A program made the translations under genes and the position numbers. A stretch of DNA of 64,000 nucleotides from Chloroflexota bacterium. Lineage in GTDB: Bacteria; Chloroflexota; Anaerolineae; B4-G1; SLSP01. The first letter of the stretch is position 1. Every line of letters begins with the position of its first letter. The stretch covers positions 1,012 through 65,011 of the forward strand of contig JAIOAS010000002.1 in the NCBI GenBank assembly GCA_019873725.1, written 5' to 3'. Below, in pieces: positions 2,276 through 60,920 of this stretch. Under the pieces are notes generated by a model. It saw nothing but the letters and a program-made list of their open reading frames with translations, was not told the origin of the DNA and made no database searches.

Positions 2276-2829
2276 TTCTCGTGGTGGGTGCAAAGGGCGG
2301 CATTGGCACAACCACGCTGGCGCAACACCTGTGCCGGCAGGCCAACGCCGTCCCCCTGGATGCCGCCGACGGCACATTGGCCCTGCAAATGGCTGCGCCA
2401 GGCGCGCCAGTGCTTGATCTAGGCTTCACCGCGCAGTGGACAGCGAGTCGCCGGGGACGCGCTGTCGAGCAAGCGGTCGAGACGCGGCAACCGTTGCTGT
2501 GGAGCGCCGCCTGCACCGTGTGGCGCGCGCCGGTGATGGCCTTCGTGTGGGACGCGGCAGCATTGGGACACGTCATTGCCGACGGCGGCACAACCCCGCC
2601 GCCCGCCCTGGTAGACCTCGCCAGCCTAATCCTCATCGTCAGCGCCGATAACCCGGTCGCCCAATGGCACGAGCGCCGCCTCAAGCAGCAATGGCCGCAG
2701 GCCCACGCCGTGGTCGGTGATCTGAAGGCGGCAGCCCAGGCGATTGCGGAGGAAACGTTGGGCGTGAAGAAGAAGCTTTCAGCTATCAGCTTTCAGCGTT
2801 CAGCCAGCAGTCCAAAAGCTGACCGCTGA
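2269..2829 (+). CDS. MinD/ParA-like protein with degenerate Walker A (GAKGGIGTTT)
   Basis: MLILVVGAKGGIGTTTLAQ: the signature lysine is present but the P-loop GK[ST] lysine is replaced by T. The C-terminal tail (KKKLSAISFQRSASSPKADR) is encoded by a hairpin-repeat element. Confidence 0.5.
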   Translation: MLILVVGAKGGIGTTTLAQHLCRQANAVPLDAADGTLALQMAAPGAPVLDLGFTAQWTASRRGRAVEQAVETRQPLLWSAACTVWRAPVMAFVWDAAALGHVIADGGTTPPPALVDLASLILIVSADNPVAQWHERRLKQQWPQAHAVVGDLKAAAQAIAEETLGVKKKLSAISFQRSASSPKADR

Positions 2830-2846
2830 CGGCTGAAAGCTAACGG
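2774..2846. repeat. tandem-heptamer inverted-repeat hairpin element (AGCTKWC / GCTGACG arms)
   Basis: agctttcagctatcagctttcagcgttcagccagc ... agctgaccgctgacggctgaaagctaacggc. Confidence 0.6.
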
Positions 2847-2874
2847 CAAATCATTCATCAAGGAGACAAACGAA

Positions 2875-3831
2875 ATGCGTATTCTGAAATCCATTCAATT
2901 CTGGGTCGGCCTGCTGCTCGTCGGGGGTGCGTTCGTGGGCGTGCTGCTGTTTGCGCAACTCACCACCCCGCCCACCTACGAAGTCGCCATCGCGGTGCAG
3001 GACATTCCGGCGTACACATCACTGCAAGACGCCTATACCAACGGTTATATTGCGTTGGACAAGCAATCGTTCAGCCCGTCGCTCTTGCAAGTCGTGCTGA
3101 CGCCCGAAACCTTGCAAGCGATGCTGGCCGATGGGGTCTTCGTCGAGACGGTCCGCGCGGGCGATGTGCTCAACCGAGGGCGCATTGCCACCGGTGAGAA
3201 CGCACAGAAAGTGCGCCGGCTGGCGCTGGCCCTCACCGATCCGCAATTGGTCATCAAGTCCATCCCAGTGGACGCCGAAACCACACCGTACATCGCGGTC
3301 GGCGACCTGGTGGACTTATACACCACGTTAGGCACCGTGCGCGCCACCGAGTTGGCGACCAGCACCGTGCCGCCTTTGCCCGCCGGGGTCACGCCACCCC
3401 CGCCCACACCGGAGCCGCTGCCCGACTACGAGGCGTTGACTCAGCCCGTGACGGTCACGCTGCAACTGCCGGTGACCAAGCGGGTGGTGGCCGGGGCCAT
3501 CGTGGTGCGCGTCAACCACGAGCAGATCGCCAACCCGCAGTATGGGGCGGTGACCGCCGATGGGCAACCCCAACCCGCACCGTTTATCGCCGGGCCGGTG
3601 GTGGGCGTGGACGTCCTCGTCCCCGAAACCACCGCCGAGAGCCTGGATTGGGCGGTGTTCAACGGCAAGATGTCCCTCGCGGTACGCCCCGCCATCTGGC
3701 GCGCGACCGTCGAGGCCGGGCAAGCCTTGCCGGAGACTCCGGGCTTCGCGTGGGAAGACTTCAATGCGGTGTTTTGGGGTGGTAGACGGCAGACGGTAGA
3801 CAGTAGACAGGGGGAGACGGAGACACGGTAA
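2875..3831 (+). CDS. cpaB: Flp pilus assembly protein CpaB/RcpC
   Basis: N-terminal TM helix (WVGLLLVGGAFVGVLLF), then SAF-like region (YEVAIAVQDIPAYTSL...GDVLNRGRI) and CpaB C-terminal domain. RBS aaggagacaaacgaaATG. Confidence 0.75.
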   Translation: MRILKSIQFWVGLLLVGGAFVGVLLFAQLTTPPTYEVAIAVQDIPAYTSLQDAYTNGYIALDKQSFSPSLLQVVLTPETLQAMLADGVFVETVRAGDVLNRGRIATGENAQKVRRLALALTDPQLVIKSIPVDAETTPYIAVGDLVDLYTTLGTVRATELATSTVPPLPAGVTPPPPTPEPLPDYEALTQPVTVTLQLPVTKRVVAGAIVVRVNHEQIANPQYGAVTADGQPQPAPFIAGPVVGVDVLVPETTAESLDWAVFNGKMSLAVRPAIWRATVEAGQALPETPGFAWEDFNAVFWGGRRQTVDSRQGETETR

Positions 3832-3940
3832 TGGGATGACGGGGTGACAAGGTGAGTGGGTGACAGCGTGAGATTCACCCTTTGTCCCCTCTCCCCTTCC
3901 CCCCGCCCCGTCTACCGTCTACCGTCTACTGTCTACTCTC
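3781..3940. repeat. tandem-heptamer inverted-repeat hairpin element (GGTAGAC family), nested arms
   Basis: ggtagacggcagacggtagacagtagacag ... ccccgtctaccgtctaccgtctactgtctac. Inner G-rich/C-rich arms pair with G-U wobbles. Confidence 0.65.
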
Positions 3941-3953
3941 CGAAGGAGGAACT

Positions 3954-5321: not shown

Positions 5322-5323
5322 AA

Positions 5324-5462
5324 CTGGTTGCTAGTTGCTGGTTGCTGGTTGCTGGTTGCTTGAAGCTCGATGCTCGATCCAGCAACGTGTAACCAGCAAC
5401 AAGTAACGAGTATCCAGTATCGAGTATCCAGTATCCAGCATCGAGCAACCAGCAACAAACAA
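5324..5462. repeat. tandem-heptamer inverted-repeat hairpin element (CTGGTTG / CCAGCAA family)
   Basis: ctggttgctagttgctggttgctggttgctggttgc...ccagcaacgtgtaaccagcaacaagtaacgagtatccagtatcgag. Confidence 0.65.
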
Positions 5463-5478
5463 CGAGGAGAGAGGAACA

Positions 5479-7750: not shown

Positions 7751-8451
7751 TGAGTCAAGGGACAACCGCTGTCACACTCGTGCCCGCCCTGGTCGGCCTC
7801 TGGCTGGCTTGGTTGAGCTACGGCGATCGGCGGACACGCAACGTCCCGGCCTGGGCCACAGCCTTGCCCCTGGCAGTGTTGGGATTGCTGCGTGTTGTTG
7901 TAGTCCCACCGGATGGCGTGGTTGTACCTGGCGGCGCAGCGGTGGGGTTCGCCCTGCTGATGCTCTTGCTGTCCGACACGCCGTCCGCCATCTTCCCTGC
8001 CGGGGCCGCTGCGTTCTGCGCCGGACTCTCCGGGGAGCAGGCGCAAGTCCTGGTAGGCAGTTGGATCGCTGCGTTGGTGCTCGTTGACCTGAACATCTGG
8101 GGCGCAGGGGACGGCAAAGTGTTGGCCGTGTTGACGGCGCTGTATCCCGATGTGCGGGTACTGGTCGCAATGGGTATAGCTTTGCTCGCGGGCGGTGTGG
8201 TGACCTTGCTCCGGCACCGCCCACGCATTGGCGAACGCCGCACTTTCCCCGCCATCCCCTGGTTGGCAGTGGGAACAATGCTCTACCTGGTGTTGGTAGC
8301 GGTCAGCAATCAGCGTTCAGCTATCAGCTTCGGACTGCCAGCATCAAGCAACCAGCTTCCAGCATCCAATATTCAGCATTCACTCCCAAGTGCAAGGACT
8401 TCGGACTTTCGACTTTGGACTTGGGACTACTTTCAAGGAGGTTCACATTGA
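7750..8451 (+). CDS. cpaA: prepilin peptidase CpaA/TadV (A24 family)
   Basis: Polytopic membrane protein with LVDLNIWGAGDGKVLAVLTALYPD (the aspartyl peptidase DGK-type motif). GTG start at 7750 or ATG at 7714. The last ~48 aa are encoded by a repeat element and overlap the tadB start. Confidence 0.65.
   Translation: MSQGTTAVTLVPALVGLWLAWLSYGDRRTRNVPAWATALPLAVLGLLRVVVVPPDGVVVPGGAAVGFALLMLLLSDTPSAIFPAGAAAFCAGLSGEQAQVLVGSWIAALVLVDLNIWGAGDGKVLAVLTALYPDVRVLVAMGIALLAGGVVTLLRHRPRIGERRTFPAIPWLAVGTMLYLVLVAVSNQRSAISFGLPASSNQLPASNIQHSLPSARTSDFRLWTWDYFQGGSH
8301..8432. repeat. tandem-heptamer repeat element (CAGCNNT / CCAGC / GGACTT arms) encoding the cpaA C-terminal tail
   Basis: ggtcagcaatcagcgttcagctatcagcttcggactgccagcatcaagcaaccagcttccagcatcc...ggacttcggactttcgactttggacttgggac. 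Confidence 0.55.
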
Positions 8452-10237: not shown

Positions 10238-10264
10238 TAGCCGTTACGCGCCTGGCCGTTTTCT

Positions 10265-10346
10265 GACAGGATTAACAGGATTTTCAGGATTGGCAAAGGC
10301 TTTATGAGGTCTTTTTTCATCCTGTTCATCCTGGCAATCCTGTCCA
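10265..10346. repeat. CAGGATT-family inverted tandem repeat; paralog at 60713-60784
   Basis: gacaggattaacaggattttcaggatt ... catcctgttcatcctggcaatcctgtcc. The left arm is the exact reverse complement of the arm at 60758-60784. Confidence 0.7.
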
Positions 10347-10502
10347 AAGAAAGGAGGTGATGCCTATTGAATGACGACAACTAACCCATAACGGTCCCGC
10401 ACCTTACCGGGGGCGCAGTGCGTTCCACTGCGTCCCCACTTAACCGAAGCCATTCATAGTTCAGCCAAATCAGTTTCAGGCAGAAGGAGGAGAGATAAGC
10501 CT

Positions 10503-16585: not shown

Positions 16586-17032
16586 ATGCAAATTCGTAAC
16601 TCGCAACTCGCAACTCAGCCCGAACAAGGCCAGGCCCTCATCGAAATGCTCATCGCCTTGCCGCTGCTGCTCCTGATCCTGGCCGCGGTCATCGGCTTCG
16701 GGCGGGTGCTCTTTGTCGCCCTCGCCGTTGACCAGGCCGCCTTCACCGGTGGACGCTACGCCGCCGAGAGCCTGAATCCCTACCAGGCCGCGTACCAGGC
16801 CTACCGCGCCACGGCAATGAACCTGACCGCTAACGGGATCGACGCTGCGCCGATGGCCTGGCAACTCGACGCCGCCGGCTGGCAGCGTGGCGGGACGGTG
16901 ACCAACTACGCCGGCGTCGCCGTGCCCGTCAATGACATCCCGCTGGCCCCGCTGCTCTTCGGCAGCGACCGCGTGACGCTCTGGCAGGGTGCGACGTTCC
17001 GCATCGAAAGGTGGAAGTCGAAATGGCAGTGA
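16586..17032 (+). CDS. TadE/TadG-like pseudopilin
   Basis: QPEQGQALIEMLIALPLLLLILAAVIG. RBS gggaggtgaaacgATG. Confidence 0.7.
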   Translation: MQIRNSQLATQPEQGQALIEMLIALPLLLLILAAVIGFGRVLFVALAVDQAAFTGGRYAAESLNPYQAAYQAYRATAMNLTANGIDAAPMAWQLDAAGWQRGGTVTNYAGVAVPVNDIPLAPLLFGSDRVTLWQGATFRIERWKSKWQ

Positions 17033-17493
17033 GGACAGGGAGTAGGAAGTATGGAGTAGGGAGTAAGGGACGCTGGCGCGGCCCTGATGAACAGGGGCAA
17101 GTGCTGGTTTGGGTACTGGTGTTGCTCCCATTGCTCCTGCTGATGGCGGCGCTGCTCATCGAGGGTGGCCTGATGTACCGCACGTACCGGCTGGCGCAGA
17201 TGGCCGCCGATGCAGCGGCGCACGCCGCCGCCCAGGAACTGGACGTGGCCTTGTACATGCGTACCGGGCGCGTGGCGTTGACGCCCAATGCGGCGACCGT
17301 GGCGCGGACCATCGCCGCGACCAACACCCGCGGACTGGTGGCCTGCGGCGTCCCGCACGTATGGGCCAACCGTGTGGAACTCGTCTGTCAAGCGGACTTA
17401 CACCCTGTCGTGCTCATCGGCGGTCCCACGGTTCACGTCAGTGTGCGTGGCCGCGCCCGACCCGCCTGGGGTGCAACGGTGGAATACGAGTGA
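17023..17493 (+). CDS. tadG: TadG-like (Tad_N domain) pilus assembly protein
   Basis: DEQGQVLVWVLVLLPLLLLMAALLIEGGLMYRTYRLAQMAADAAAHAAAQE is Tad_N-like. Confidence 0.6.
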   Translation: MAVRTGSRKYGVGSKGRWRGPDEQGQVLVWVLVLLPLLLLMAALLIEGGLMYRTYRLAQMAADAAAHAAAQELDVALYMRTGRVALTPNAATVARTIAATNTRGLVACGVPHVWANRVELVCQADLHPVVLIGGPTVHVSVRGRARPAWGATVEYE

Positions 17494-17494
17494 C

Positions 17495-17656
17495 GGAGAT
17501 TGAGAGAGTGGGAGATTGAGAGAATGGGTGAATGGAGAATCAGCGAATGAGCGAATCAGCGTGCATCGCCTTTCTTCTTTCCCCCTTACTCCTTACTCCT
17601 TACTCCCTACTCCTATTCACCATTCTTAACTCGCAACTCATAACTCGCAACTCGCA
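17495..17656. repeat. compound tandem repeats (GAGATTGAGAGARTGGG x2; GAATCAGCG; CTTACTC xN; AACTCGC xN)
   Basis: The cccttactccttactccttactccctactcc run is the inverse of ggagtaggaagtatggagtagggagtaaggg at 17040-17070, so the pair flanks tadG. AACTCGC runs also occur at 16596-16620 and 54731-54768. Confidence 0.55.
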
Positions 17657-17665
17657 AGGAGAACA

Positions 17666-18387: not shown

Positions 18388-19875
18388 ATGAGTATGCACA
18401 CGAATGACAAACGCAAAACCGTTTTACGCATCGGCCTTCTGCTGCTGGTCACTGGACTGGCACTGTTGGCGCTGGCGGTGTTCGTCACCCCGGCAGGCGC
18501 GTGCTGTACGCCGCCGGAGAACAGTTGTTGCGGTGCTCCTACCAGTGGCTGCTTCAAGTGTGCCAGCGGTGGTTCTGGCGGTGGAGGAGGCGGTGGAAGT
18601 GCAACGCCGGTTCCCCCTGCACCAACGCCTGGCGAGGGTGGTGGCGGCGGCGGTACACCTGCGCCACCGCCTCCTACCGCGACACCGCCGGCGGGCTTGC
18701 CCGGTGGTGGTTTCTACCGGATGAGCTGCGACGCGCTGATTCCCGGCTGTCCCCACGACTGGACGGTGGTCTTGTGGTGGTGTATGCCGAGCGGCCAGTG
18801 CTACGTGGTGCAAGCGCGCTGTGCTGCCGCCGGGGAATGTGACCTGGCGACGCCCACGCCACGTCCCTCGCCAGAGCCAGGCGAGGGCAGTGAATGGCCG
18901 TGCGAAGATGTGCCCGATGTGTACCCTGGTGGCATTGACCAGACCTGCGATGACTGGCAGTGGAACATCGATGTGCAAGTCCAGATTCCGCCCGCGCAAG
19001 TGCTGCGCAATCCCTGGCCGCGTTCGCTGGTGGGCTTGCCAACCAAAATCTGGTACACCGGCGCGCCCAACCGTGTCGAAGCCTTTTCCACGGGCAAGGC
19101 GTTCCCCTGCAACGTGGACTACGGGGCAGCTTACAGCAGTACCGGCGATGTGCCGGCGTGTCCTTCACCGGTGGGTCAACCCACGGAAGGGACGCGGGTG
19201 AATCTGCAACTCGGCGCGGCCTGGCAACGCTGGACACAAGGGGCAGCAGGGGTGTACGGCTTCACCCCGCCGTATGCATCGCTGATCTCCGTGGGCGACC
19301 GCGCCTGGAATGGCGGCGGCAGTACCATACCGGGCAACTACCTGGAACACACCTTTCAGACTTCATCGTATGGCCTCACCGCCAACGGCCCGCGCTGGAA
19401 CCCGGACTGCCAGGACCGCAACTGTACCTGTGACGAACGGGTGCTGGCCTGGGATATGCCGGCGTATCAGGGCGGGGTGCAGACCTGGTGGTATCCGCAG
19501 TGGACGTGGAAGTACGACGAACTGCAATGCACACGCCGCGAGTGGGGCGACTGTTTCTACCGCGCCGAGCCGCCGTTGGGCATCTCCGCGCGCGGGTGCA
19601 GTTCCGGGGAACACACAGGGGAAGCCGACTGGTATCAGTTGGAACAATGCGTGGAATGGCGCTGGCGCAACATCACGGGGCCGCTGTTTGGCTGTTCTGG
19701 CGAGCAGCAAGGCGCGTGGTGCGTCTACGACTTGCGCAATCTTGGCTTTCAGCCAATGGTCACCTGGGCCGCCGCGCAGACTGCCGGGGCCGATGCCAAT
19801 GGGACGCAATGTGGCAGCTTCACGCCGGGTCTGGCGATTCCCGTCATCGAGGTGCAGGCGGTGTTAGAGCCGTGA
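18388..19875 (+). CDS. Cys/Trp-rich secreted or anchored hypothetical protein
   Basis: TM/signal (LLLLVTGLALLALAVFV), then CCTPPENSCCGAPTSGCFKCASGG, a poly-Gly/Pro linker, and more than 30 Cys and many Trp in the remainder. No known domain recognised. Start at 18388 or 18394. Confidence 0.45.
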   Translation: MSMHTNDKRKTVLRIGLLLLVTGLALLALAVFVTPAGACCTPPENSCCGAPTSGCFKCASGGSGGGGGGGSATPVPPAPTPGEGGGGGGTPAPPPPTATPPAGLPGGGFYRMSCDALIPGCPHDWTVVLWWCMPSGQCYVVQARCAAAGECDLATPTPRPSPEPGEGSEWPCEDVPDVYPGGIDQTCDDWQWNIDVQVQIPPAQVLRNPWPRSLVGLPTKIWYTGAPNRVEAFSTGKAFPCNVDYGAAYSSTGDVPACPSPVGQPTEGTRVNLQLGAAWQRWTQGAAGVYGFTPPYASLISVGDRAWNGGGSTIPGNYLEHTFQTSSYGLTANGPRWNPDCQDRNCTCDERVLAWDMPAYQGGVQTWWYPQWTWKYDELQCTRREWGDCFYRAEPPLGISARGCSSGEHTGEADWYQLEQCVEWRWRNITGPLFGCSGEQQGAWCVYDLRNLGFQPMVTWAAAQTAGADANGTQCGSFTPGLAIPVIEVQAVLEP

Positions 19876-20010
19876 GCTAGTTGCTGGTTGCTGGAAGCTC
19901 GAAGCTGGAAACTGGAAGCTGGAAAAGCCAGTGACCAGCAACCAGCAACCAGTAACCAGTAACCAGTAACCAGCTTCCAGCATCAAGTATCCAGCTTCAA
20001 GTATCAAGAA
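19876..20010. repeat. CTGGTTG/CTGGAAG inverted tandem-heptamer hairpin element
   Basis: gctagttgctggttgctggaagctcgaagctggaaactggaagctgg ... ccagtgaccagcaaccagcaaccagtaaccagtaaccagtaaccagcttccagc. Confidence 0.65.
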
Positions 20011-20030
20011 TCTCACAAGGAGGAACGTTT

Positions 20031-38920: not shown

Positions 38921-38990
38921 CATTCCAGTATCGAGCTTCCAGCATCCAGCCTCAAGCTTCCAGCTTCCAGCATCCAGCCTCAAGCCCCAA
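38921..38990. repeat. GCTGGAA/GCTGGAT tandem repeats forming the methyltransferase C-terminal tail
   Basis: cagtatcgagcttccagcatccagcctcaagcttccagcttccagcatccagcctcaagc. Confidence 0.5.
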
Positions 38991-41900
38991 CTTCCCCTGC
39001 ACCATCTCCACCCGCTCCTCTTCCTCCGCCGGGACCTCCAACGCCTCGAAGAACGCCGCGCGGATGCCGTCCAGCGCCGCCGCCTCCGGGCGGACGAACT
39101 TGCCCTTGACCTTGCCGCGCGGCACGGCATTGATGAACGCTTGCAGCGCCGCCTTGAACGCGCCATCCGCGCCCAAACCGCTCTTCTTGAGGAACGCCTC
39201 GCAGGCCGCCGCGCCATCCTCCGCGTAGACGAGCATCACGGTATGGACGGCGTCCAGCCAGGTGTCGTAGTGTTTGGCTTCGGGGTCCACTTTGCCACGC
39301 GCGCGGCGCTGTTTGGGTTGGAGCATGGTGACGTCGCTGCCGCTCTTGCTGATGACGCGCTGCGCCACCAGATCGCGCTCCACGTCCAGCCCCAGCGCCA
39401 GGGCGAGCTTGCGTGCTTCGTCCGCCGGGAAGGTCTCCGCCTGGAACGCATCCCACGCCATCAACGCCCAATCGGTGACGGGATCGAACTGCACGTCGCG
39501 CCCCAGGAGCAGGCCGCGCTTGCGTAAGGCAATGACTTCTTCGCGGGCCAGATCGAGCGCGGTTTCCGGGCGCAAGGCTCTGGGCTGCCCGGTGCGTTCG
39601 TCCACCTCGCGGGTGAGGACGGGCCAGCGTTCGGAAATGACGGCGAGCACGGGGCCAAAGGTGCTCAGGTAAAGATCGACGCCGCTGATGCCCTGCGCGT
39701 TGAACTCCGCCGCCTTCTCGCGGGCCACAGCGCGCACGCGCGGCGCGAGATCGTCCCACCAGACGGGTTGCTCGAAGCTGGAAGCTGGATACTCGATACT
39801 GGAAGCTGGTTGCTGGATGCTGACGGCTGATAGCTGACGGCTGACGGCTGACGGCTCGCTGCGTTTCCGGCACACCAGCAGTATCGTGCTCTGCGCGGCG
39901 TTTTTCTTGGCCTGGTGGAGGGAGTGCTCGCTTTCGGTGTGGACGGGCCACGAGGCGGTAATGGTGAACCCGGCGTTGATGAGCGCCATCGCCAGGGTGT
40001 CCCACGCTTCGACCTGTTTGTGGGTGAACATCACGGTGAGGACGCCGTCGTCGCGGAGGACGCGCGCCATCTCGCGGAAGGACGCGCCCATTTTGCGCTC
40101 GTAGTCCTGCGCGGCCATCTCCCGTTTGTTGCCGCCCAGATCGGTAAAGCGGGCAGGATTGGCAACGGCTTCGGCGTCCTTGTCGGTGAGTTGGGCAGCG
40201 AACCACTCCGGGTAGAGGTGGCCCACGGTGCGCTTGAGCCACACGTAGAAAAAGTCCGCGAGTTCTGCGTACATCACGTTGTCGTAGTAGGGCGGGTCGG
40301 TGACGATGACATCCACCGAACCATCCGCCAGCGCGGCGAGGCGGGCGGCGTTGCCTTGAAGCTGCGTAAGCGGGCCGCGTGCCATTGCCGCCGTTCCCAA
40401 CTTCGCCGGCGCGAAGGCAAGCAAATCGGCCATATCTTTGTAGGCATCGGCAACTTGACTGATGGCCCACGGCATCAAGTTGGCCGAAGCGTCGAATTCA
40501 CCGTGACTCCAGACAAAAGCGTAATCGTGGCGGTCGAAATTGCTGCGCAGCCCTCGGCTTGGGTCGAAACGGCACAGCCGGTTGTTATAGATCACCATCT
40601 TGTCCATCATCAGACCGAGATAAGCTTCGATGGCAGGAGCGCGTTCTTCGCCCAAGACTTTATAGATTTCAGGGCGTAGTTCTGACAAAGTTTCGATGGC
40701 TGTCCCCATCGCTAACAGTTGTCGCGGTGAGAAGAAGTCCGACCAGATCGGCATCCCGTACAATGCCGGCCGCATATCATTGCCCTGTGGGAACGCCTCC
40801 GTCGGAATCAAATCCCGTGCTTCCCACAGCGGACGTCTGCGAGCCAGTTCCGCCTCCGCCGCCGCGACGGCGTCCAGGTCGGCCTCGGTGGGCGCGCGGA
40901 AGTCGAAGCCGCCACGCCGTTTGAGCGCCACCGAGTAGAGCATCTGCCCCATGCGCCCGGCCTGCGCCTCGGCTTTGATGTAGTCGCCGTCAATGGCGTC
41001 GCCGGTCCACGGGGAGCGGCCTGTGCCCCGGCTCACCGTGCCTTCGTCGGGGTCGTACTGTAAGGGTGAGGCATCCCCACCCACACCGTCGTTCACTACC
41101 TCCCATGCGTCTTCCGTGGTGTCTTGACGATTACGTTGATTGCCGGGATGCCTCGCCCGTACGATCTCGAAGCGCGGCGCATCCCAGGCCGGGTCGGTCA
41201 GCACGCGGACGGCTATGGGCGGGGATTTGCTCAGCCACCAGTTAGGGCTGAGTGGGACGGGCTTTCCCGTCACCGGGCAGGCGACGGTCCGCGCCCAGAG
41301 GTAGGCGAAGATGTTCTCGCCTTTACCCTTGGGGAAATACGGTGCGAGTTTCTCCTGTACCCGTTTGGCCCACACATTCCCCCACTTTTTGATGTCCGCC
41401 GCCAGTTCCGGGCCGAACGTCGCAGGGTAGTCGAGTGTGGCCTTGAGGATGACGCACGCCACAGGGTTGAGTTCGTTGGCAATGGTCGCCAGCCCGTAGC
41501 GCCGCGCCTCAAAAGGAATCGAACCGCCGCCAGCAAAGGGATCGAGGACGACGACGTCTTTCAAAGACCTGACAGGTCTCGGAAGACCTGTCAGGTCTAG
41601 CAGTTTCTCGAAAAGCGCCAGGTCGTCGGCTTCAGGGTTGACGGTGAAGGCGCGGGCATAACCATAGGGATTCGCACCCAGGTCTTCGCCGGTTACACGG
41701 GCATTGAGCAGTATCTGGCGCATCTTTGCCGGATCCCCCTTGATGCCGAGGAACCGCAGGAACCAGGCGCGATAGGCGGCCTCGTCGTCGAAAGGATTCG
41801 TAGCACAGGCTTCCAGCCTGTCCCACGCCGGCAACAACGAAGCCACAATCGCCGCGCGGGAGATCGTCAACGGGCGGCGCGCCCACCAGACATGGAGACG

Positions 41901-44221: not shown

Positions 44222-45241
44222 TTATTCCTCCGCCAGCAGTACCCGTAACGCCTTCTGCGCACGAATGGCATCCGGCCCGGCGGTGCATTTGCTGAACCAG
44301 TAATAGGCTTCCTCACCGCTCATCGCCTGGATGCCCTGCCCAATCGCCTCGATGCGATCCTGGCGCGTCAGCGGCTTCACCGCCAGCAAGATCAGCGCCA
44401 GGCGCAGCCCCGTCGGTTCGTCAAGGTAGAAAGGCTTGTCGCTGCCCACAGCGCGGGCCAGGTCGGTGGCCTTGTAGCCATTGGCGCGCAGCGCCGCGAG
44501 CAGGTGCTCGGTCGTCGCGTGGAGCGTCTGCGCATCCACGTCCACGCTCCACAACGCCTGTGCGGCGGGCTTTGTGGCCTGCTCGTAAGCGAATTTGGCA
44601 GTCTGCCGCCCATTGAGCCACTGGTATAACGCCGCGCGGTAGCCCCCGGCAGGATCAGGCAACGTGTAGAGCACAAAAGGCCGGGCCGGGTCGGGTTGGA
44701 AGCTGGGTGCTGGTTGCTGGATACTGGTTGCTGGTTGCTGGATGCTGGATGCTGGATGCTCGATGCTGGATGCTGGATGCTCGATGCTGGATGCTGGTTG
44801 CTGAGGGCTGACCGCTGACTGCTGATAGCTAATAGCTGACGGCTGACGGCTGATAGCTGATGGCTGATCGCTGACATCGAAGAGACGGCGGCGGCCGGCG
44901 GTATGCAGCGGTGCGGGCAGGCGTTGCGGAGCGGCGAAGAACCAGCCAAAGCACGGCGCGCCGGGAAAGGGTTGGTCCAGGCGGTGCTGGGCTTGCAAGG
45001 CTGCGTAAGATTCGGCGTCCAGCGCGCGGATCTCGACCAGTTCCACCGTCCCGAGGAGTGCGCCGTAGGCCAGCGCATCGGGATCGAAGCCCAGGGCGCG
45101 GCAGCGTGCGTCCCGGCGCGTGGCGGCGGCGTGCACTGCCAACGGGCCGCGATAGGCCGTCTGCCAGGTGCGGATGTCCACCGTCTTTTCACCGCGGACG
45201 ATCTGCTCCGCGCGCGGCTGGTGGAAGCTCAAAGCTTTCAC
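44222..45241 (-). CDS. ASCH-domain protein fused via repeat-encoded linker to DUF3780-like C-terminal domain
   Basis: ASCH: MKALSFHQPRAEQIVRGEKTVDIRTWQTAYRGPLAVHAA...GTVELVEI. Linker SDQPSAISRQPSAISYQQSAVSPQQPASSIEHPASSIEHPASSIQQPATSIQQP encoded by heptamer repeats. The C-terminal ~170 aa sit in the position expected for DUF3780 in DUF1156/DUF499 cassettes. Confidence 0.5.
   Translation of the reverse strand: MKALSFHQPRAEQIVRGEKTVDIRTWQTAYRGPLAVHAAATRRDARCRALGFDPDALAYGALLGTVELVEIRALDAESYAALQAQHRLDQPFPGAPCFGWFFAAPQRLPAPLHTAGRRRLFDVSDQPSAISRQPSAISYQQSAVSPQQPASSIEHPASSIEHPASSIQQPATSIQQPAPSFQPDPARPFVLYTLPDPAGGYRAALYQWLNGRQTAKFAYEQATKPAAQALWSVDVDAQTLHATTEHLLAALRANGYKATDLARAVGSDKPFYLDEPTGLRLALILLAVKPLTRQDRIEAIGQGIQAMSGEEAYYWFSKCTAGPDAIRAQKALRVLLAEE
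44698..44876. repeat. heptamer repeats (CTGGATG/CTCGATG + GCTGACG types) inside the ASCH-DUF3780 coding sequence
   Basis: ggatgctggatgctggatgctcgatgctggatgctggatgctcgatgctggatgctggttgctgagggctgaccgctgactgctgatagctaatagctgacggctgacggctgatagctgatggctgatcgctgac. Confidence 0.65.
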
Positions 45242-51516: not shown

Positions 51517-52073
51517 TTGCGTTCCAATGATACCTTCAGTCCGTGGTCGCGGCATCGGCCTTGCAGCGCAAGGCTTGTGCCGAGGCTCCGGCCTCACATC
51601 CGGCCCTGTCTGATCAAGACAAGGCGCAATGGGCAGAACCTTAACAACCTCAATATTCTTATTCTGACTGCGAAAGGCAGAGCCGTGGGCAGCGCCCGGA
51701 GAACAATCCCGGTGCATTTCCTGCGGCTGCCAATACGCAATTCTGAAACGTAAAGACGTAAAACGTAATGCGCAAGAAAGACACGGCGACTTGGCTTTGT
51801 CCCTTTACGTTTCACGTTTTACGCCTTATTCTGCCCATCTTTGCTTTGGCCTCTCCGGTGCCCCGGCCTAAAAACAGTCGGTGCGCGGGAGACGCACTGA
51901 TTGATACCCTGGTTCATCCACGCACCACCCCGACCCCGGCTTCAGCTTGTCGAGTCAGCCAGGCGATGGGGCGTCCGGCTGACCACTGTTTTCGTCGTTG
52001 TCCTTCACACGGGAGGCGCATCGTTCTCCCGTCGTGGAGAACCCGTGCGCCTCTCAGTTGTGATCCACTGGTA

Positions 52074-52124
52074 ATCAACAAATCTCAAATCAACAAATCT
52101 CAAATCAGCAAATCACAAATCTAA
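52074..52124. repeat. AAATCTCAAATCA tandem repeat upstream of RBS; paralog at 60878-60920
   Basis: aatcaacaaatctcaaatcaacaaatctcaaatcagcaaatcacaaatcta. Both copies end ...GGAGGTATRC(G)AATG. Confidence 0.55.
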
Positions 52125-54730: not shown

Positions 54731-54768
54731 GTAACTCGCAACTCGCAACTCATAACTCGCAACTCATC
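54731..54768. repeat. AACTCGC tandem repeat
   Basis: gtaactcgcaactcgcaactcataactcgcaactc, immediately 5' of caaggaggtaactcgtATG. Confidence 0.55.
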
Positions 54769-54786: not shown

Positions 54787-55713
54787 ATGAACCCATTGTT
54801 GTCATCCGCGTTGGCTTACACCCGCGCGGGCTTATCCGTGATTCCCTGTGACCGGCGGCGCAAACAACCGCGCCTGCGCCGGTGGAAGCCGTACCAGGAC
54901 CGTCCACCCACGCCTTTCGAGGTGTGGCGCTGGTTCGGTCCCTGGACGCAGGCCGACGCCCTCGCCGTGATCACCGGTGGGGTCAGCGGCGATCTGGAAG
55001 TGCTCGACTTCGATGCGCCCGCGCTGTTCGCGCAATGGGCGACGGCGCTGATGCAGTACGACGCGACGCTGCTCGCGCGGCTGCCCGTGGGGCAGACGCA
55101 AAGCGGCGGCTACCACGTGTACTATCGTTGTGACGTGGCGATCAGCGGCAACCAGAAACTAGCCGTGGATCCAGCCAAGCCCGGCGGCAAGTTCACGCTC
55201 ATCGAAACGCGCGGCGCGGGCGGCTACGTGCTGGCCCCGCCGAGCGCGGGCTACACGCTGCTGCAGGGCGACCTGACCGCGATCCCGTTTCTGAGCTGCG
55301 AAGAACGTGCGGCGCTCTTGGACACCGCGCGGCAGTTCAGCCGTGTACCGCCGGTCTGCGTGCCACGCACGGCGATGACGCCCTGGCGCTATGCAACGCA
55401 GGCCCACCGGCCCGGCGACGACTACAACCGGCGCGGGGACGTGGTGGGCATCCTGGAACGCCACGGCTGGCGCTGTGTACGCCACGTCCACGAGGCATCG
55501 TACTGGCGACGACCGGGGAAGCGGTGCGGACATTCCGCCACCTACAACTACCGCGACTCGCGCTGTTTCTACGTCTTCACCAGCAATGCCCCGCCGTTCG
55601 ACCCCGCGCGGGCCTACAGCCCCTTCGCCGTGTTTGCGTTGTTGGAACACGGCGGCGACTACCACGCGGCGGCCACGGCCTTGCGGCAGTTAGGCTATGG
55701 CGGTAGCTCATAG
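54787..55713 (+). CDS. bifunctional primase-polymerase (Prim-Pol) N-terminal domain replication protein
   Basis: ALAYTRAGLSVIPCDRRRKQP...WKPYQDRPPTPFEVWRWF...LAVITGGVSGDLEVLDFD matches the Prim-Pol (PF09250) pattern with acidic catalytic motif. Confidence 0.65.
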   Translation: MNPLLSSALAYTRAGLSVIPCDRRRKQPRLRRWKPYQDRPPTPFEVWRWFGPWTQADALAVITGGVSGDLEVLDFDAPALFAQWATALMQYDATLLARLPVGQTQSGGYHVYYRCDVAISGNQKLAVDPAKPGGKFTLIETRGAGGYVLAPPSAGYTLLQGDLTAIPFLSCEERAALLDTARQFSRVPPVCVPRTAMTPWRYATQAHRPGDDYNRRGDVVGILERHGWRCVRHVHEASYWRRPGKRCGHSATYNYRDSRCFYVFTSNAPPFDPARAYSPFAVFALLEHGGDYHAAATALRQLGYGGSS

Positions 55714-55813
55714 CTATCAGCCGTCAGCGGTCAGCGTTAGCAGCGCAGCCAGCCCTTGACGTGAGGATGAGATGCACCTCCGGGCTGATGGCTGAAAGCT
55801 GAATGCTGACGGC
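55706..55813. repeat. AGCTATCAGCCGTCAGC / GCTGATGGCTGAAAGC inverted tandem-heptamer hairpin
   Basis: agctcatagctatcagccgtcagcggtcagcgttagc ... gctgatggctgaaagctgaatgctgacggc. Confidence 0.6.
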
Positions 55814-55836
55814 TTTTACTCACAAGGAGAACCACG

Positions 55837-57575: not shown

Positions 57576-57907
57576 ACGGTGTCACACCGCTACCTGGCAA
57601 GTGGCGGGCGCGACACTCCACGGCGCTGGCCGATGAGACCCGCGCGGCAGTGGAAGCCTGTCTGAATAGCTTTGCCGCTACGAAGACGGCAACGCCGACC
57701 CCGCCGACCACTGTGTCGGCCCAATGGGAAGACCTGTTGGCCGGACGGCTGGCGCACTGCCACTTACCAGCCGGCGTCCTGGAACGCCTCATTGCCGAGG
57801 CCGTGGCCGACACGATGTCGGCAATGGCCGCGACGTTGGAACGCCAGTTGCGCTTCCGCATCCAACGCGAGCAACAGGCGCAATTGCAGACCTGTGACGA
57901 TTACTGA
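57572..57907 (+). CDS. hypothetical protein
   Basis: 111-aa ORF with overlapping start. Confidence 0.3.
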   Translation: MNGVTPLPGKWRARHSTALADETRAAVEACLNSFAATKTATPTPPTTVSAQWEDLLAGRLAHCHLPAGVLERLIAEAVADTMSAMAATLERQLRFRIQREQQAQLQTCDDY

Positions 57908-58207
57908 GTGGTACTGTTGATCGTGTTGTTACATTTCTCCGCGTATTGGCCTACTCCGTAAGTGCTGACATCGTTTGACGATTCCAGCACACTGCGACTC
58001 TATGTCGCGCATCCGCAAGGGAAGCGGACGAGGACGCACAGCGTCTTTCTCCGCTTCCCCGGCCTTTTCTTCGCAGGACCGCGCTGCGTGCGGCTCTGCT
58101 TTTCGCAGAATACGTTTTTCCCCGGCAGGGAGGCACATCGTTTCCCCGCCTGGGGAGCTATGTGTGCCACCTTGCCACCATTCTATCTTGAGCAAGGAGG
58201 CTCAACC

Positions 58208-59329
58208 ATGCAACTGACCTGTGTGAACGAAACCTTGAGTGCCGGCCTGAGCCGGGTGGGACGCGCCGCGTCTCCCCGTGCGACGGCAATGCCCATCTTG
58301 GGCCATGTTCTGTTGGATGCCACACCCGATACGCTGACCCTCGCGGCCAGCAACCTCGAATGGCACATCGTCCAACGCATTCCCGCCGTGGTCACTGAAC
58401 CCGGGCGCGTCACCGTCCCCGCGGCAGCCTTCGCCGAGTGGGTCAAGATGCTGCCCGCTGGTTTGACCTCGGAACTGACGCTGGACGTCACGTCCCTCAC
58501 GTTGTCAATGACCTGTGACCAGGCCAACGCGCGCTTTCGCGGCCTGGATGCAACGGAGTACCCGCTTCTGCCGGAACCCGATGCCGACAGCGTGGAAGTC
58601 GAGGCTACGGCCTTGCGCGCGGCGCTGACCCGCGTGGCGTTCGCCGCCTCGGAGGACGCCGCCCGTCCGGTGTTGATGGCCGTGCTGGCGCACTTCGCGG
58701 GACAGACCCTCACGCTGGCGGCTGCCGATGGCTACCGCCTGTCCGAGGCGCAAGTTCCGCTGGCCGCGCCGGTCACCGCGCCCTTCGATGTGCTGATTCC
58801 TGCGCCGGTCTTGGCCGAAGTCCAACGGTTGTTGGGCCGCGAAGGGACGGTGACGTTGTCCGTCACTGACCTGCGCGACCGCATCGCCTTGCACTTCGAC
58901 GCGACCACGGTGGTCTCCCAAGTCGTGGCCGGGACTTACCCCAACTACAAGGCGGTGATCCCGACCAGCACGGCCACGAGCGTCACGGTGGAACGCGCGG
59001 CAGTGCTCCACGCCTGCCAGCGGGCGCGCATCTTTGCCCGCGATGTCGGCGGCCTGGTGCGGTTGCACCTCGATGACGCTGGCCTGACGGTGACGGCGGA
59101 GTCCGCCACGGGCGGCGATAGCAGCACGGTCGTGCTGGTGGTGAGCCACCAGGGACTGGCGCTGGATATTGCCTTCCGTGTGGACTTCCTCATCGAAGCG
59201 TTAGCCGCGTTGGACACCTCGCTGGTAGGACTGCGCTTCAACAGCGCCCTGCAACCGGGTGTCATTGGGCTGGCTGATGTGGATGCCTTCGTCCACGTGG
59301 TGATGCCGATGGAGATCGGTAGACGGTAG
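58208..59329 (+). CDS. dnaN: DNA polymerase III beta subunit (sliding clamp)
   Basis: MQLTCVNETLSAGLSRV...AMPILGHVLLDA...LTLAASNLEWHI and YPNYKAVIP motif. RBS agcaaggaggctcaaccATG. The C-terminal codons overlap a repeat element. Confidence 0.8.
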   Translation: MQLTCVNETLSAGLSRVGRAASPRATAMPILGHVLLDATPDTLTLAASNLEWHIVQRIPAVVTEPGRVTVPAAAFAEWVKMLPAGLTSELTLDVTSLTLSMTCDQANARFRGLDATEYPLLPEPDADSVEVEATALRAALTRVAFAASEDAARPVLMAVLAHFAGQTLTLAAADGYRLSEAQVPLAAPVTAPFDVLIPAPVLAEVQRLLGREGTVTLSVTDLRDRIALHFDATTVVSQVVAGTYPNYKAVIPTSTATSVTVERAAVLHACQRARIFARDVGGLVRLHLDDAGLTVTAESATGGDSSTVVLVVSHQGLALDIAFRVDFLIEALAALDTSLVGLRFNSALQPGVIGLADVDAFVHVVMPMEIGRR

Positions 59330-59538
59330 ACGGTAGACAGGAGGGAGAGAATTCTCCCCGTCTACTGTTGGCTGACTATTGGCTACCCGGCCTGACAAGG
59401 CCACTCAACATCAATGTGAATCGTTGTGCAACATTAACCTGGAGACGGAAGACAACCGACTACCGACAGGGCAACACCCCCTCTTCCCCTTCTCCCTTTC
59501 CCCGCCCCGTCTACCGTCTACTGTCTACCGTCTACTCT
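59318..59538. repeat. GGTAGAC-family inverted tandem-repeat hairpin; paralog of 3781-3940
   Basis: ggtagacggtagacggtagacagg ... ccccgccccgtctaccgtctactgtctaccgtctactc. The right arm plus flanking C-rich tract is ~90% identical to 3893-3940. Confidence 0.7.
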
Positions 59539-59551
59539 CAAGGAGAAATCG

Positions 59552-60685
59552 ATGAACCCTGTACTGACCTTTCAAGATGATGTTACCTCGTTGTTGACCG
59601 AGTTGCGGCGCTATCTGGCGCAGTACCCGGAGATGCCGCTGCTGTGCAGCGTGACGTACCCCTTGCCTGGCTTGCCGTTGATCCCGGAACGCGCCGAGCG
59701 CGTCTACCGCAACTACCGCCAGTATCTCCAAACGCCGTGGGGCCTCGCCGTCTACACCGACATCCGCCACTACCAGTACCCGCAGCTTTCTTACGCGGGC
59801 CTCTACACGCTGGTCGAAGTGGCGAAAGACGTCGTGTGTCCGCAGCCGACGGCGCCAGAACCCGCTGTGGCCGTGGTCAACCCGATCAATGGACTGGCCG
59901 CGGTCTACGCGGGTGACACCCTGGCGACGGAGACAATGGACGGTACGCCGGCCTGGGAAGGGAAGCTGATCTTGCCCGACCACTGGAATGCGGTCGATGT
60001 GCTGTACCAGGTACGGCTGGCGTTGGCCCAGGCGGGTGCCGCGTGGTATCCCGGTGCGTTGTACGTCGAACGAGTGGCCTATCCCTGGCTCACGCCAGAG
60101 GGCTTGCCCACGCAGACGGCCTACATCGCCAACGGGGAAGTGCGCTTGCCCGTCATCGGCTACGCCATCGACCCGCATACCGAGGCGCTCGTGTACCTGA
60201 GCCTGGTGGGGCACAAGACCGCCGCGCGCAGCATCTGGGGATCGCTGAACACGATGCACCAGCGCAAGCTGACCCTGGAAGCGCACCGCACCCAGACTAC
60301 GGTGGTTTCGTCGCACAACTACGCCACCTACACCGCCAGCGTGGACGCCGACACGGGCCTGCTGCGGATGCAGATCGTGGAACGCCGCGCCTGCGCCGCC
60401 GATGTGGAGGACTGGGTCTACCTGGTCACCCCACCGGGCCTGGACGCAGCGGCGGTCAATGCGGCCTTCGCCGCGCGCCTCAGCGCCGTGTTGCCTATCG
60501 GCGTGCCGGCGCAATGGGGCGGCAAGTTGCGCGAGGCCGGCGACGATCTGGGCCTGGTGCGGCGGTGCTTGTGCGGTGGGGACGTGGGCGCAGCCTACGC
60601 GCTCACCGCTGATGAACAATGGCTGGACGTGATCGCAGGCTTGTTGCGCGACGATCCGGCCTTCGTGATTCCTGAGACGTTGTAA
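59552..60685 (+). CDS. hypothetical protein
   Basis: 377-aa ORF with RBS caaggagaaatcgATG. No recognised domain. Confidence 0.45.
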   Translation: MNPVLTFQDDVTSLLTELRRYLAQYPEMPLLCSVTYPLPGLPLIPERAERVYRNYRQYLQTPWGLAVYTDIRHYQYPQLSYAGLYTLVEVAKDVVCPQPTAPEPAVAVVNPINGLAAVYAGDTLATETMDGTPAWEGKLILPDHWNAVDVLYQVRLALAQAGAAWYPGALYVERVAYPWLTPEGLPTQTAYIANGEVRLPVIGYAIDPHTEALVYLSLVGHKTAARSIWGSLNTMHQRKLTLEAHRTQTTVVSSHNYATYTASVDADTGLLRMQIVERRACAADVEDWVYLVTPPGLDAAAVNAAFAARLSAVLPIGVPAQWGGKLREAGDDLGLVRRCLCGGDVGAAYALTADEQWLDVIAGLLRDDPAFVIPETL

Positions 60686-60712
60686 GCGTGATCTTACGCG
60701 GTTTGTTCCTTT

Positions 60713-60784
60713 GGACAGGATTAACAGGATAAAAAAGTTGGCAGCAAGCCTTTCCTAATCCTGAAAATCCTGTTAATCCTGTCA
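60713..60784. repeat. CAGGATT-family inverted tandem repeat (paralog of 10265-10346)
   Basis: gacaggattaacaggat ... aatcctgaaaatcctgttaatcctgtc. Confidence 0.7.
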
Positions 60785-60877
60785 GAAAATGACACACCAC
60801 GTCACGCCTGATCTTACACACCGGGGGATGCACCATGCATTCCCCCGGTGGGAATGTACGGTGTGTCCTCCGTTGGT

Positions 60878-60920
60878 CAATCATCAAATCTGCAAATCAC
60901 CCAATCATCAAATCACATCA
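60878..60920. repeat. AATCATCAAATCWS tandem repeat upstream of RBS
   Basis: caatcatcaaatctgcaaatcacccaatcatcaaatcacatca. Confidence 0.5.

Follow-up and report, generated by a model that had tools for sequence, protein, structure and literature searches.

What are the tandem heptamers that stand, often as inverted pairs, at the gene junctions of a Chloroflexota genome, and how did they come to be there? We addressed this question for a stretch of 64,000 nucleotides (contig JAIOAS010000002.1 of assembly GCA_019873725.1, positions 1,012 to 65,011 of the forward strand), referred to here as the window. An earlier note on this DNA had described a family of elements that each consist of tandem copies of a short unit, a spacer and tandem copies of the reverse complement of the unit. 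We lean, with modest confidence, toward the explanation that these are heptanucleotide simple sequence repeat (SSR) arrays of the STRR (short tandemly repeated repetitive sequence) or GGGAATC kind, produced by slippage, inverted duplication and occasional copying and filtered by their position. The anatomy of the arrays, their enrichment, polarity and turnover and their presence in frame inside proteins are established.

By sequence similarity, the window belongs to the Anaerolineae. Its CpaF-like ATPase shows 95%, 92% and 88% identity to proteins from metagenome-assembled genomes (MAGs) of Anaerolineae, and the relatives' loci that carry this ATPase are collinear with the window at 83 to 89% DNA identity (loci and contigs other than the window are given L numbers below). 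The overall G+C content of the window is 62%, with islands of lower GC. Three gene blocks can be distinguished: a Tad/Flp pilus operon (1.5 to 20 kb), a defence island on the minus strand (25 to 51 kb) and a mobile-element-like module (53.7 to 61.6 kb).

Abundance, position and polarity of the arrays

With a custom detector, 26 period-7 tandem arrays of at least three copies were found in the window, compared to 0.35 expected from first-order Markov simulations of the window, and the identical detector returned no period-7 array for 50 kb of Escherichia coli K-12. Other periods were scarce (seven arrays of period 6, one of period 8 and two of period 9), and Tandem Repeats Finder (TRF) concurred in a big excess of period 7. 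The array density amounted to 4.1 per 10 kb in the window, 2.3 to 3.7 in relatives at 83 to 89% DNA identity and 0 to 0.9 in more distant relatives. The repeat unit, previously given as 6 to 8 nt, was essentially 7 nt, with a few variants of 8 to 9 nt besides. Units draw on a small vocabulary of core motifs at 7-nt spacing (NN-YCAGC, GTCTAC-Y, AACT-NNN, AATC-NNN, GAATCAGC and GGCAAGA); AACTCGC, CCTTACT, GGACTTN and CAGGATT were further units seen in the window. At least eight core families occur, none of them dominant. No core family of the window arrays has G-runs, and therefore G-quadruplexes are not in play.

The reverse complementarity of the arms was confirmed at 10 sites, where an array is followed by a spacer and by its reverse complement (partner arrays at 2774/2815, 3781/3908, 5324/5389, 10264/10319, 17495/17577, 19876/19928, 51746/51805, 55712/55783, 59317/59507 and 60714/60767). 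The statement that at least 15 sites share this one architecture was too strong: beside these approximately 10 inverted pairs, approximately 10 further arrays are direct only (8298-8428, 16591, 17037, 17628, 38923, 39767-39856, 44695-44874, 52073, 54731 and 60879), several of which lie within coding sequence and not at gene junctions. A clustered regularly interspaced short palindromic repeat (CRISPR) array was considered and rejected, since it needs repeats of 24 to 48 nt with unique spacers of similar length, while the units here are 7 nt and contiguous.

Arrays are present in about 11 to 13 of the 19 co-directional spacers of at least 45 nt and in none of the 4 divergent or convergent spacers. 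Outside junctions, they sit at the termini of open reading frames (ORFs) and in linkers. In 7 of 9 hairpins, the upstream stop codon overlaps the 5' arm or lies at most 3 nt from its beginning. The distance from the 3' arm, or from the end of the array, to the next start codon is 9 to 34 nt, and an AAGGAG-type Shine-Dalgarno site adjoins at about 11 junctions, where the proposed placement between the upstream stop codon and the downstream ribosome-binding site was thus borne out.

The two arms follow a fixed order. A metagenome scan for (GTCTACY)3 gave at least 120 contigs with 31 to 72% G+C. Among the matches listed, many contigs bear additional heptamer arrays, and GTAGAC repeats were found within 250 nt upstream of 30 of the 119 (GTCTACY)3 arrays and downstream of none; over all loci, the G-rich arm is 5' and the C-rich arm 3' in 41 of 44 inverted pairs, this purine-first polarity spans about 15 unrelated unit families, and the sole exceptions are TCAGC..GCTGA pairs. 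The order is identical on both strands, and gene orientation is therefore not its explanation. Most G-rich arms contain TAG, TGA or TAA, and because 7 and 3 share no factor, an array with one of these triplets provides a stop in all three frames. The upstream ORF ends on a stop supplied by the array at 59317, at 38923 and at position 16351 of L128.

Folding of the 10 inverted sites gave predicted energies of -25 to -90 kcal/mol, with z scores of -3.7 to -8.4 compared to shuffled sequences, in line with the long imperfect stem-loops in operon transcripts that had been suggested. An intrinsic (Rho-independent) terminator was rejected for these structures: a terminator scan of positions 1 to 20000 of the window found no T-tail on any heptamer hairpin, that is, no U-tract would follow the stem in the scanned region. 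Both strands of the 64 kb gave no Rfam match at the gathering threshold, and ARAGORN found no tRNA in the window; therefore, the elements are not a catalogued RNA. The hairpins are likely neither terminators nor dedicated regulatory RNAs.

These positions and folds also bear on the possibility that the arrays are selected intercistronic RNA elements, with hairpins that serve as decay barriers, RNase III-type processing sites or translational-coupling devices, and with unpaired A/C-rich arrays of the AACT and AATC cores that act as standby or enhancer leaders before the Shine-Dalgarno site. We regard this as possible, if doubtful. The confinement to co-directional junctions, the absence from the 4 divergent or convergent spacers and the bounding of the stems by a stop codon and a Shine-Dalgarno site would suit it, and comparable roles have been proposed for STRR hairpins (PMC2670836) and TAACTGA leader repeats (PMC4679880). 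Since G-U pairs are permitted on one strand only, an advantage of the sense strand would reveal selection on the transcript. However, among the 10 window hairpins the sense strand was more stable in three and less stable in six, and a combined stability and G-U comparison at loci with inferred orientation gave 4 versus 4, with noisy orientation and eight usable pairs. The RNA-level roles suggested in the earlier note thus gain no support, as the sense strand is no more stable than the antisense strand and no advantage appears in folding energy or in G-U pairs. The occurrence of the same units in coding regions, where a role in RNA structure is unlikely, speaks against such selection as well.

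Turnover, copying and in-frame arrays

Comparison of junctions 2774, 3781, 5324, 8298, 16591 and 17495 with L001 to L003, L006, L126 and L128 revealed variation in both length and sequence. The differences correspond to whole units or 21-nt steps and are accompanied by turnover of arrays. At junction 2774, TCAGC/GCTGA is retained in L003, and both arms of L002 carry TCAGT/ACTGA. At junction 3781, L003, L006 and L126 have GTAGAC/GTCTAC arms that vary in copy number and interior; the arms are missing from L004, which has a longer spacer without an array, and from L005, in which the flanking genes lie 1 nt apart. L002 and L003 show a direct GGCAAGA array and no hairpin at junction 5324. In L003, junction 16591 is longer by 21 nt, and the hairpin at 17495 is made of a different unit. 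The array at 17037..17065 is missing from L005 and L007. The elements are missing from more distant relatives whose genes abut tightly.

The elements had been taken to be dispersed and paralogous and not the result of local slippage. A dispersed family with true paralogues does exist (see below), but the exclusion of slippage did not hold, as relatives at 83 to 89% identity differ by whole units, by array turnover and by in-frame 21-nt steps. This comparison argues clearly for local expansion alongside copying. An assembly or sequencing artefact of the MAG is extremely improbable as a source of the arrays. At about 4240-4340 of L001, a run of N stands exactly at the orthologue of window 10258-10350, as such an artefact might have it; against this, the same elements occupy the same junctions in independent assemblies (DAOLUH01, DAOUAQ01, JBBIOY01 and contigs of JGI and Logan), and in-frame arrays preserve the reading frames of conserved proteins. 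With a run of N at the locus of this CAGGATT element in L001, assemblers therefore struggle at such elements, and metagenome assemblies or scaffolds break at these repeat hairpins.

Hairpin stability at orthologous junctions was kept in some cases and lost in others, so that selection on the transcript has points on both sides here. In its favor, hairpin potential is kept in relatives at junctions 2774, 3781 and 17495 even with a different unit, and leader arrays keep their core at orthologous junctions. At 2774, 4 of 22 pairs changed from C-G to U-A in L002, double-sided and once per unit. Such covariation of the arms is, however, also obtainable by template switching from arm to arm, L002 and L003 have lost the 5324 hairpin or carry direct arrays in its place, and those more distant relatives with tightly abutted genes lack the elements.

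Arrays of the same kind were also found inside proteins. In-frame arrays of heptamers or 8-mers in the DUF1156 methylase, the ASCH-DUF7680 protein and CarA constitute hypervariable linkers of 7- to 8-residue repeats, for example, PASSIQQ, SAVSRQP, ESANQRIG and QDARGKR. In the window, they lie on the minus strand: (CGTCAGC)x5 (WWCCAGC)x7 at 39767..39856 in the DUF1156 methylase ORF, translated as a linker (SAVSRQLSAVSIQQPASSIEYPASSFEQ), and a 26-unit array, (NN-TCAGC)x11 (WWCCAGC)x15, at 44695..44874 that makes up the linker between the ASCH and DUF7680 domains. Further in-frame arrays are located at 13818-13850 and 15521-15551 of L128, at 10378-10517 and 14908-14962 of L130 and at 5251-5382 and 5791-5924 of L035. 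In every interior in-frame array of the large ORFs, the C-rich strand is the coding strand, and this strand (NN-TCAGC, NN-CCAGC) is by construction free of stops in all frames.

The linker of ASCH-DUF7680 ranges from about 10 to more than 80 residues among 16 homologues, which have different 7- or 8-residue repeats according to lineage. In the orthologues of ASCH-DUF7680 and CarA, the linker arrays are hypervariable, differ in 21-nt steps and are missing from distant members. The methylase linker arrays are orthologous in L128 and L130, and a CCGTCTA array lies inside the L128 methylase; L128 has 7 arrays in 21 kb. Contig L035 carries 13 heptamer arrays in 11 kb, around and inside a carA gene that is 80% identical to named Anaerolineae proteins. 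The L035 CarA protein contains two hypervariable insertions built from shared heptamer units, which more distant CarA proteins lack. The in-gene arrays of the relatives and the carA region of L035 indicate that the phenomenon is clade-wide and not bound to pilus, defence or mobile genes. Two other explanations of the methylase arrays were considered. A cassette of 800 nt flanked by TCCAGCA (38924-38978) and TGCTGGA (39769-39822) was rejected, as the interval is the conserved C-terminal domain of the methylase, in frame. Phase variation of the methylase by 7-nt slippage found no support, as the arrays are degenerate and in frame in all relatives.

Some elements have copies elsewhere in the window, in agreement with the two pairs named in the earlier note. 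The near-identical copies at 3893-3940 and 59490-59538 extend to about 75 nt shared by 3860-3950 and 59455-59550, comprising a C-rich tract, (CCGTCTA)4, CTCTC and a Shine-Dalgarno site; the 3860-3950 paralogue corresponds to the right half of the 59317..59538 hairpin. Shared ancestry of the genes downstream of these two GTCTAC paralogues was rejected after comparison of the proteins, which are unrelated. Likewise, the match of 10265-10291 to the reverse complement of 60758-60784 extends to 10258-10350 and the reverse complement of 60705-60790, with 33 identical bases and common flanks. Compared with L002 and L003, whose junction represents the empty site, the segment at 10258-10350 is cleanly inserted, and it equals the part common to the inverted copy. 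This CAGGATT element is thus about 90 nt long and has terminal inverted repeats; the window contains it twice, and relatives show an empty site.

Miniature mobile DNA with tandem-heptamer terminal inverted repeats, resembling MITEs (miniature transposable elements with inverted repeats) or REPINs and dependent on a transposase encoded elsewhere in the genome, is unlikely to account for the arrays in general. Apart from the exact insertion and its inverted copy, whose terminal repeats match at 17 of 17 positions, it could appeal to the 75 nt shared by the GTCTAC paralogues, which include non-repeat flanks and precede unrelated genes, and to the composites of a C-tract and GTCTAC that recur, among the matches listed, in L015, L035, L115 and L123; inherited terminal repeats would also give a fixed arm polarity. 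However, no target-site duplication is recognisable at the CAGGATT element, and a Pfam scan of about 59 larger ORFs of the window found no transposase, RAYT/Y1 or TnpB, as the earlier note had also concluded for transposases. Most elements, including those at 17495 and 59317, differ in unit, length and interior and are not mutual copies; one transposase family would be insufficient for a purine-first polarity over about 15 unrelated unit families, and direct-only and in-frame arrays do not fit. A MITE-like reading suits the CAGGATT element, not the whole family. The cleanest case of inverted duplication of a whole array is a perfect 48-nt palindrome at 3182-3229 of L123, in which four TCAGC units are followed, after a central gap of 2 nt, by a complement that mirrors even the variable spacer letters.

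The units themselves consist of a core and a variable spacer. The two spacer positions of NN-YCAGC were nearly random, at 1.7 to 1.9 bits over 104 units (22 arrays), while the CAGC core was nearly fixed, at 0.1 to 0.7 bits. Similarly, AACT-NNN and AATC-NNN leader arrays keep the core at orthologous L128 junctions, and the spacer letters differ. This structure brings in recognition-site arrays, in which cores of 4 to 6 nt every 7 nt would be read by a protein, such as a cold-shock- or S1-type binder of single-stranded RNA or DNA (about 7 nt per domain) or a DNA-end-processing enzyme with an oriented, Chi-like G-rich motif, or in which a repeat-adding enzyme acting on 3' ends at breaks would write the arrays. 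We think this rather improbable. Besides the core-plus-spacer units, whose cores are kept at orthologous junctions while spacers change, it would agree with the limited vocabulary common to the clade and with G-rich strands that run 5' to 3' toward the centre on both strands, as units added to the two 3' ends of a break would do; the same polarity would be expected of oriented recognition sites that face outward, and binding of heptamers by cold-shock proteins has been discussed (PMC4679880). On the other hand, no candidate protein was identified, many cores would require many readers, and a spacing of 7 bp does not match the phase of the DNA helix.

It is similarly improbable, in our estimate, that a dedicated system common to heptamer-rich bacteria (Anaerolineae, filamentous cyanobacteria, Xanthomonas and Beggiatoaceae) writes or reads the arrays; we keep this idea alive because of the core-plus-spacer units, the shared vocabulary and the polarity. 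Such a system might extend the two 3' ends of broken DNA by core-plus-spacer units, through an enzyme that acts before the break is rejoined, or it might consist of a protein that occupies single-stranded nucleic acid at one core every 7 nt. If true, an enzyme adding to break ends would account for the polarity and the inverted pairs, and also for the fixed vocabulary and for the units inserted into conserved genes.

We return to heptameric SSR arrays, the explanation toward which we lean. Several observations weigh against it. Simple recent slippage would have copied the spacers too, so the variable spacers count against it; the units do not look like clean slippage copies, which speaks for a constrained core or for a generating process of greater specificity. 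Unrelated loci and another Anaerolineae contig use the vocabulary again, which pure local slippage does not predict, and the two paralogue pairs with non-repeat flanks and the one clean insertion show that some elements were copied as units. Positive selection for a function would likewise agree with the hairpin potential that some junctions keep while their sequence turns over. With these points in mind, we propose that arrays arise and change in place via slipped-strand mispairing and may be copied to the opposite strand, by template switching or fold-back synthesis, which would give the pair of array, spacer and reverse complement; now and then, an array would be copied to a new site. Selection would keep arrays only where the harm is small. 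The permissive places would be co-directional spacers, first or last codons and inter-domain linkers in which the stop-free C-rich strand is translated.

Between cistrons, the tolerated form would be the self-folding pair. Its stop-rich, G/purine-rich arm at the upstream stop codon would end the upstream ORF promptly, and its C/pyrimidine-rich, G-poor arm would lead into the next Shine-Dalgarno site. In the operon mRNA, a stem-loop of about 25 to 65 pairs would juxtapose stop and start, leave the ribosome-binding site unpaired and hide an otherwise unstructured C-rich stretch of the transcript. The result would be a structurally neutralised spacer that likely preserves translational coupling and may buffer mRNA decay or processing.

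Individual elements and neighbouring genes

The elements of the pilus operon are on the plus strand. The inverted pair (NN-TCAGC)x4 ... (GCTGA-NN)x3 at 2774..2841 belongs to the sole family with the C-rich arm first; the final codons of ORF 2269-2829 contain the 5' arm, and the TGA that stops this ORF is part of the 3' arm. The hairpin at 3781..3937 (ΔG, -83; z, -6.7) is composed of (GGTAGAC)x4 and (CCGTCTA)x4, with a purine and then a pyrimidine tract between them, and ends 17 nt before ATG 3954. ORF 2875-3831 runs through its 5' arm, in which unit 2 has CAG for TAG. The hairpin (CTGGTTG)x5 (GCTCGAT)x3 ... (CCAGYAW)x10 at 5324..5466 (ΔG, -70; z, -8.4) begins 3 nt past stop 5321 and ends 13 nt short of ATG 5479. 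The ORF that starts there, 5479-6279, encodes a protein with the "Recombinase" domain of serine recombinases; it stands within the Tad operon, directly ahead of cpaF, and is found as two tandem copies in L002 (8489-9253 and 9280-10050). The direct compound array (NN-TCAGC)x4 (CCAGCWW)x6 followed by (GGACTTN)x5 at 8298..8428 codes for the C-terminal tail of the prepilin-peptidase ORF and adjoins the Shine-Dalgarno site of tadB (8448).

The MITE-like hairpin at 10258..10350 is built from 9-nt units, (ACAGGATTN)x3 and complement, and is the paralogue of 60708-60790. At its edge (10347-10362) lies GAAAGGAGGTGATGCC, a 12- to 13-nt match to the anti-Shine-Dalgarno sequence that is kept in L001 to L003, L005 and L007 even without the hairpin. 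Only ORFs of 4 to 5 codons follow, and the Flp-type pilin gene 10503-10787 lies about 150 nt downstream; GAAAGGAGGTGATGCC may be a leader or regulatory feature. Further along the operon, a direct array (AACTCGC)x3.7 at 16591..16616 is inside the first codons of a TadE-like gene, and a direct array (AGGGAGT)x4 at 17037..17065 lies in the N-terminal leader of ORF 17023-17493. The hairpin at 17495..17616, GGAGATTGAGAGA... / (CCTTACT)x5 with a centre of (GAATCAGC) units, starts 2 nt after stop 17493 and is succeeded by the direct leader array (AACTCGC)x4 at 17628..17657, which runs into the Shine-Dalgarno site of gene 17666. The hairpin (GCTGGWW)x7 ... (CCAGYAA)x12 at 19872..20012 (z, -6.8) overlaps stop 19875 and ends 19 nt ahead of ATG 20031.

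Other structures were seen away from these elements. The stretch at 872-915, noted together with 735-762, has a perfect 20-bp stem followed by a T-run in the canonical terminator shape. Its position is some 110 nt downstream from a promoter-like site, within predicted ORF 857-1543. It could represent a small RNA or an attenuator; alternatively, the ORF start may be miscalled. Between convergent genes at about 20899-20922, the palindrome CCAAGGGGGGTACCCCCCCTTGG is a possible bidirectional terminator, and AAGGCCAAAGAACCA repeats of 15 nt come after it (20931-20970).

The defence island (25134-51220) comprises DUF499, ASCH-DUF7680, a DUF1156 methylase and an SNF2/PLD helicase, with a second PLD-helicase at 48455-51220. 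Its low-GC inserts, in which no heptamer arrays were found, contain Schlafen/AAA_21, DUF4276 and PHP-AAA genes at 33.6 to 38.9 kb and three unannotated genes at 42 to 44 kb. The island of L130 is more compact (DUF499, ASCH-DUF7680, a gene with a CAP domain, methylase and helicase). In addition to the in-frame arrays, the island carries on the minus strand the direct array (GCTGGAW)x8 at 38923..38990, whose G-rich strand is the coding one and within which the DUF1156 methylase ORF stops.

The remaining elements are on the plus strand. The inverted pair (AAACGTA)x3 ... (TACGTTT)x3 at 51746..51827 lies just after ORF 51430-51753, and the direct AATC-core leader array (AAATCNN)x6-7 at 52073..52122 ends 15 nt before ATG 52138; its L128 orthologue retains the AATC core with a varying spacer. 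The module at 53695-61605 encodes a mini-RNase III, PrimPol, RadC, a DnaN-like clamp and a DUF6094 methyltransferase and looks like integrative-element cargo; its RNase III/PrimPol end is syntenic in L128, which covers that end only. The mini-RNase III that had been reported for this DNA is encoded at 54162-54692 and consists of an RNase III domain only. Between its gene and PrimPol lies the direct leader array (AACTCGC)x5 (54731..54765), whose counterpart in L128 reads AACTTGT, AACTTTC, AACCTGA and AACTATC. The inverted pair (NN-TCAGC)x4 ... (GCTGA-NN)x4 at 55712..55814 (z, -5.7) overlaps stop 55713 and ends 23 nt before ATG 55837. The hairpin (CGGTAGA)x3 ... (CCGTCTA)x4 at 59317..59538 has an interior of 169 nt, and its array supplies the TAG on which the dnaN-like ORF stops. 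The second, inverted copy of the CAGGATT hairpin element is at 60708..60790, with terminal repeats complementary at 17 of 17 positions, and a direct AATC-core leader array with units of 7 to 9 nt is at 60879..60916, ending 20 nt before ATG 60936. Between these two lies a near-perfect GC-rich hairpin, CACCGGGGGATGCACCATGCATTCCCCCGGTG (about 60820-60852).

Comparison with known systems

Short tandemly repeated repetitive sequences of cyanobacteria were reportedly described by Mazel et al. in 1990, and small dispersed repeats embedded in heptamer arrays are said to have been reported by Elhai et al. in 2008. The units of STRR1-3 are CCCCAGT, TTGGTCA and CAACAGT. To our knowledge, no origin or function has been accepted for heptameric repeats, which came to light in cyanobacteria in 1990 and subsequently in Xanthomonas and Beggiatoaceae. 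The arrays of the window resemble cyanobacterial STRRs in their 7-bp units, several families per genome, intergenic location within operons and capacity to form hairpins; they differ in unit sequences and host, and the elements here are known from sequence alone. Between hupS and hupL, hairpins of 7-bp STRR repeats have been described, for which transcript stabilisation or translational coupling was proposed (PMC2670836).

The closest parallels come from GGGAATC repeats in Xanthomonas and GGGGAYT repeats in Nostoc/Anabaena, described by Rehm et al. in 2015 (PMC4692102). According to that study, heptamers are 89 to 93% intergenic in Xanthomonas and strongly non-coding in Nostoc; Xanthomonas has 70 to 75 convergent inverted pairs per genome that could form stem-loops or cruciforms, whereas Nostoc has only a few (PMC4692102). 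In all three genomes, the strand after the stop is the G-rich one and that before the start the C-rich one, with heptamers up to 50 bp downstream of stops on the coding strand and up to 50 bp upstream of starts on the non-coding strand and an under-representation between divergent genes (PMC4692102). Two sister species of Xanthomonas retained the same junction with extensive variation in length and sequence, and the repeats are transcribed in X. citri, without a known function (PMC4692102). The window shares with these SSRs the head-to-tail 7-nt units with period 7 in excess (26 versus 7, 1 and 2 for the other periods) and the location mostly near ORF ends, here in 11 to 13 of 19 co-directional and 0 of 4 divergent or convergent spacers. 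It also shares the G-rich strand after the stop and the C-rich strand before the start, with the exception of the TCAGC..GCTGA family. As in Xanthomonas, there are convergent inverted pairs, 10 of them in the window, and related genomes have arrays of variable length and sequence at the same junctions. Unlike those SSRs, the window arrays have no single dominant unit, with at least eight core families without G-runs, are built from a core and a variable spacer, fill the whole interval from stop to Shine-Dalgarno site and occur in frame inside conserved proteins as well; the host phylum is Chloroflexota.

TAACTGA direct repeats were described by MacGregor in 2015 for marine Beggiatoaceae, cyanobacteria and some Bacteroidetes (PMC4679880). 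They stand in forward orientation immediately upstream of start codons, are predicted to be unstructured and include "split" sets with related heptamers; in the BOGUAY genome, only one set is inverted (PMC4679880). The AACT-core leader arrays of the window (AACTCGC, AACTCAT and AACTTGT) share with them the AACT core and the position before the start. The unit differs, however, and the leader arrays here are one of several families beside inverted pairs.

Repetitive extragenic palindromic (REP) sequences and bacterial interspersed mosaic elements (BIMEs) are single imperfect palindromes of about 20 to 40 nt with one consensus and depend on the RAYT transposase; REP elements are classically linked to mRNA stabilisation, and REPIN elements of proteobacteria were reportedly introduced by Bertels and Rainey in 2011. 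Like these, the elements of the window are extragenic, multicopy, hairpin-forming inverted doublets at gene ends within operons. Unlike them, they are internally tandem and heterogeneous, and the ORFs scanned in the window yielded no Y1/RAYT domain. The CAGGATT element is similar to MITEs in its small size (about 90 nt), its terminal inverted repeats, its two copies and its empty site, and is unlike them in that neither a target-site duplication nor a parent transposon accompanies it; most hairpins of the window are not mutual copies.

The statement that the elements map onto no described class could thus not be sustained, as their traits closely match those of published heptameric SSRs (PMC4692102, PMC2670836). 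A literature search for heptamer repeats in Chloroflexota or Anaerolineae returned no specific report, and the present arrays extend the phenomenon to Chloroflexota at a very high density of about 4 arrays per 10 kb. Any explanation of heptameric repeats must now meet a strand-symmetric purine-first polarity across unrelated unit families, a conserved core with a free spacer of 2 to 3 nt and one small vocabulary that is reused in intergenic hairpins, leaders and in-frame insertions such as those of CarA. In practice, the arrays break metagenome assemblies, inflate ORF calls and add low-complexity linkers to Anaerolineae MAG proteins. The unit sequences match none of STRR1-3, GGGAATC, GGGGAYT and TAACTGA; they are of the same kind and of different sequence families. 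The elements of the window are a Chloroflexota member of the heptameric-repeat (STRR-like) phenomenon and not a new class.

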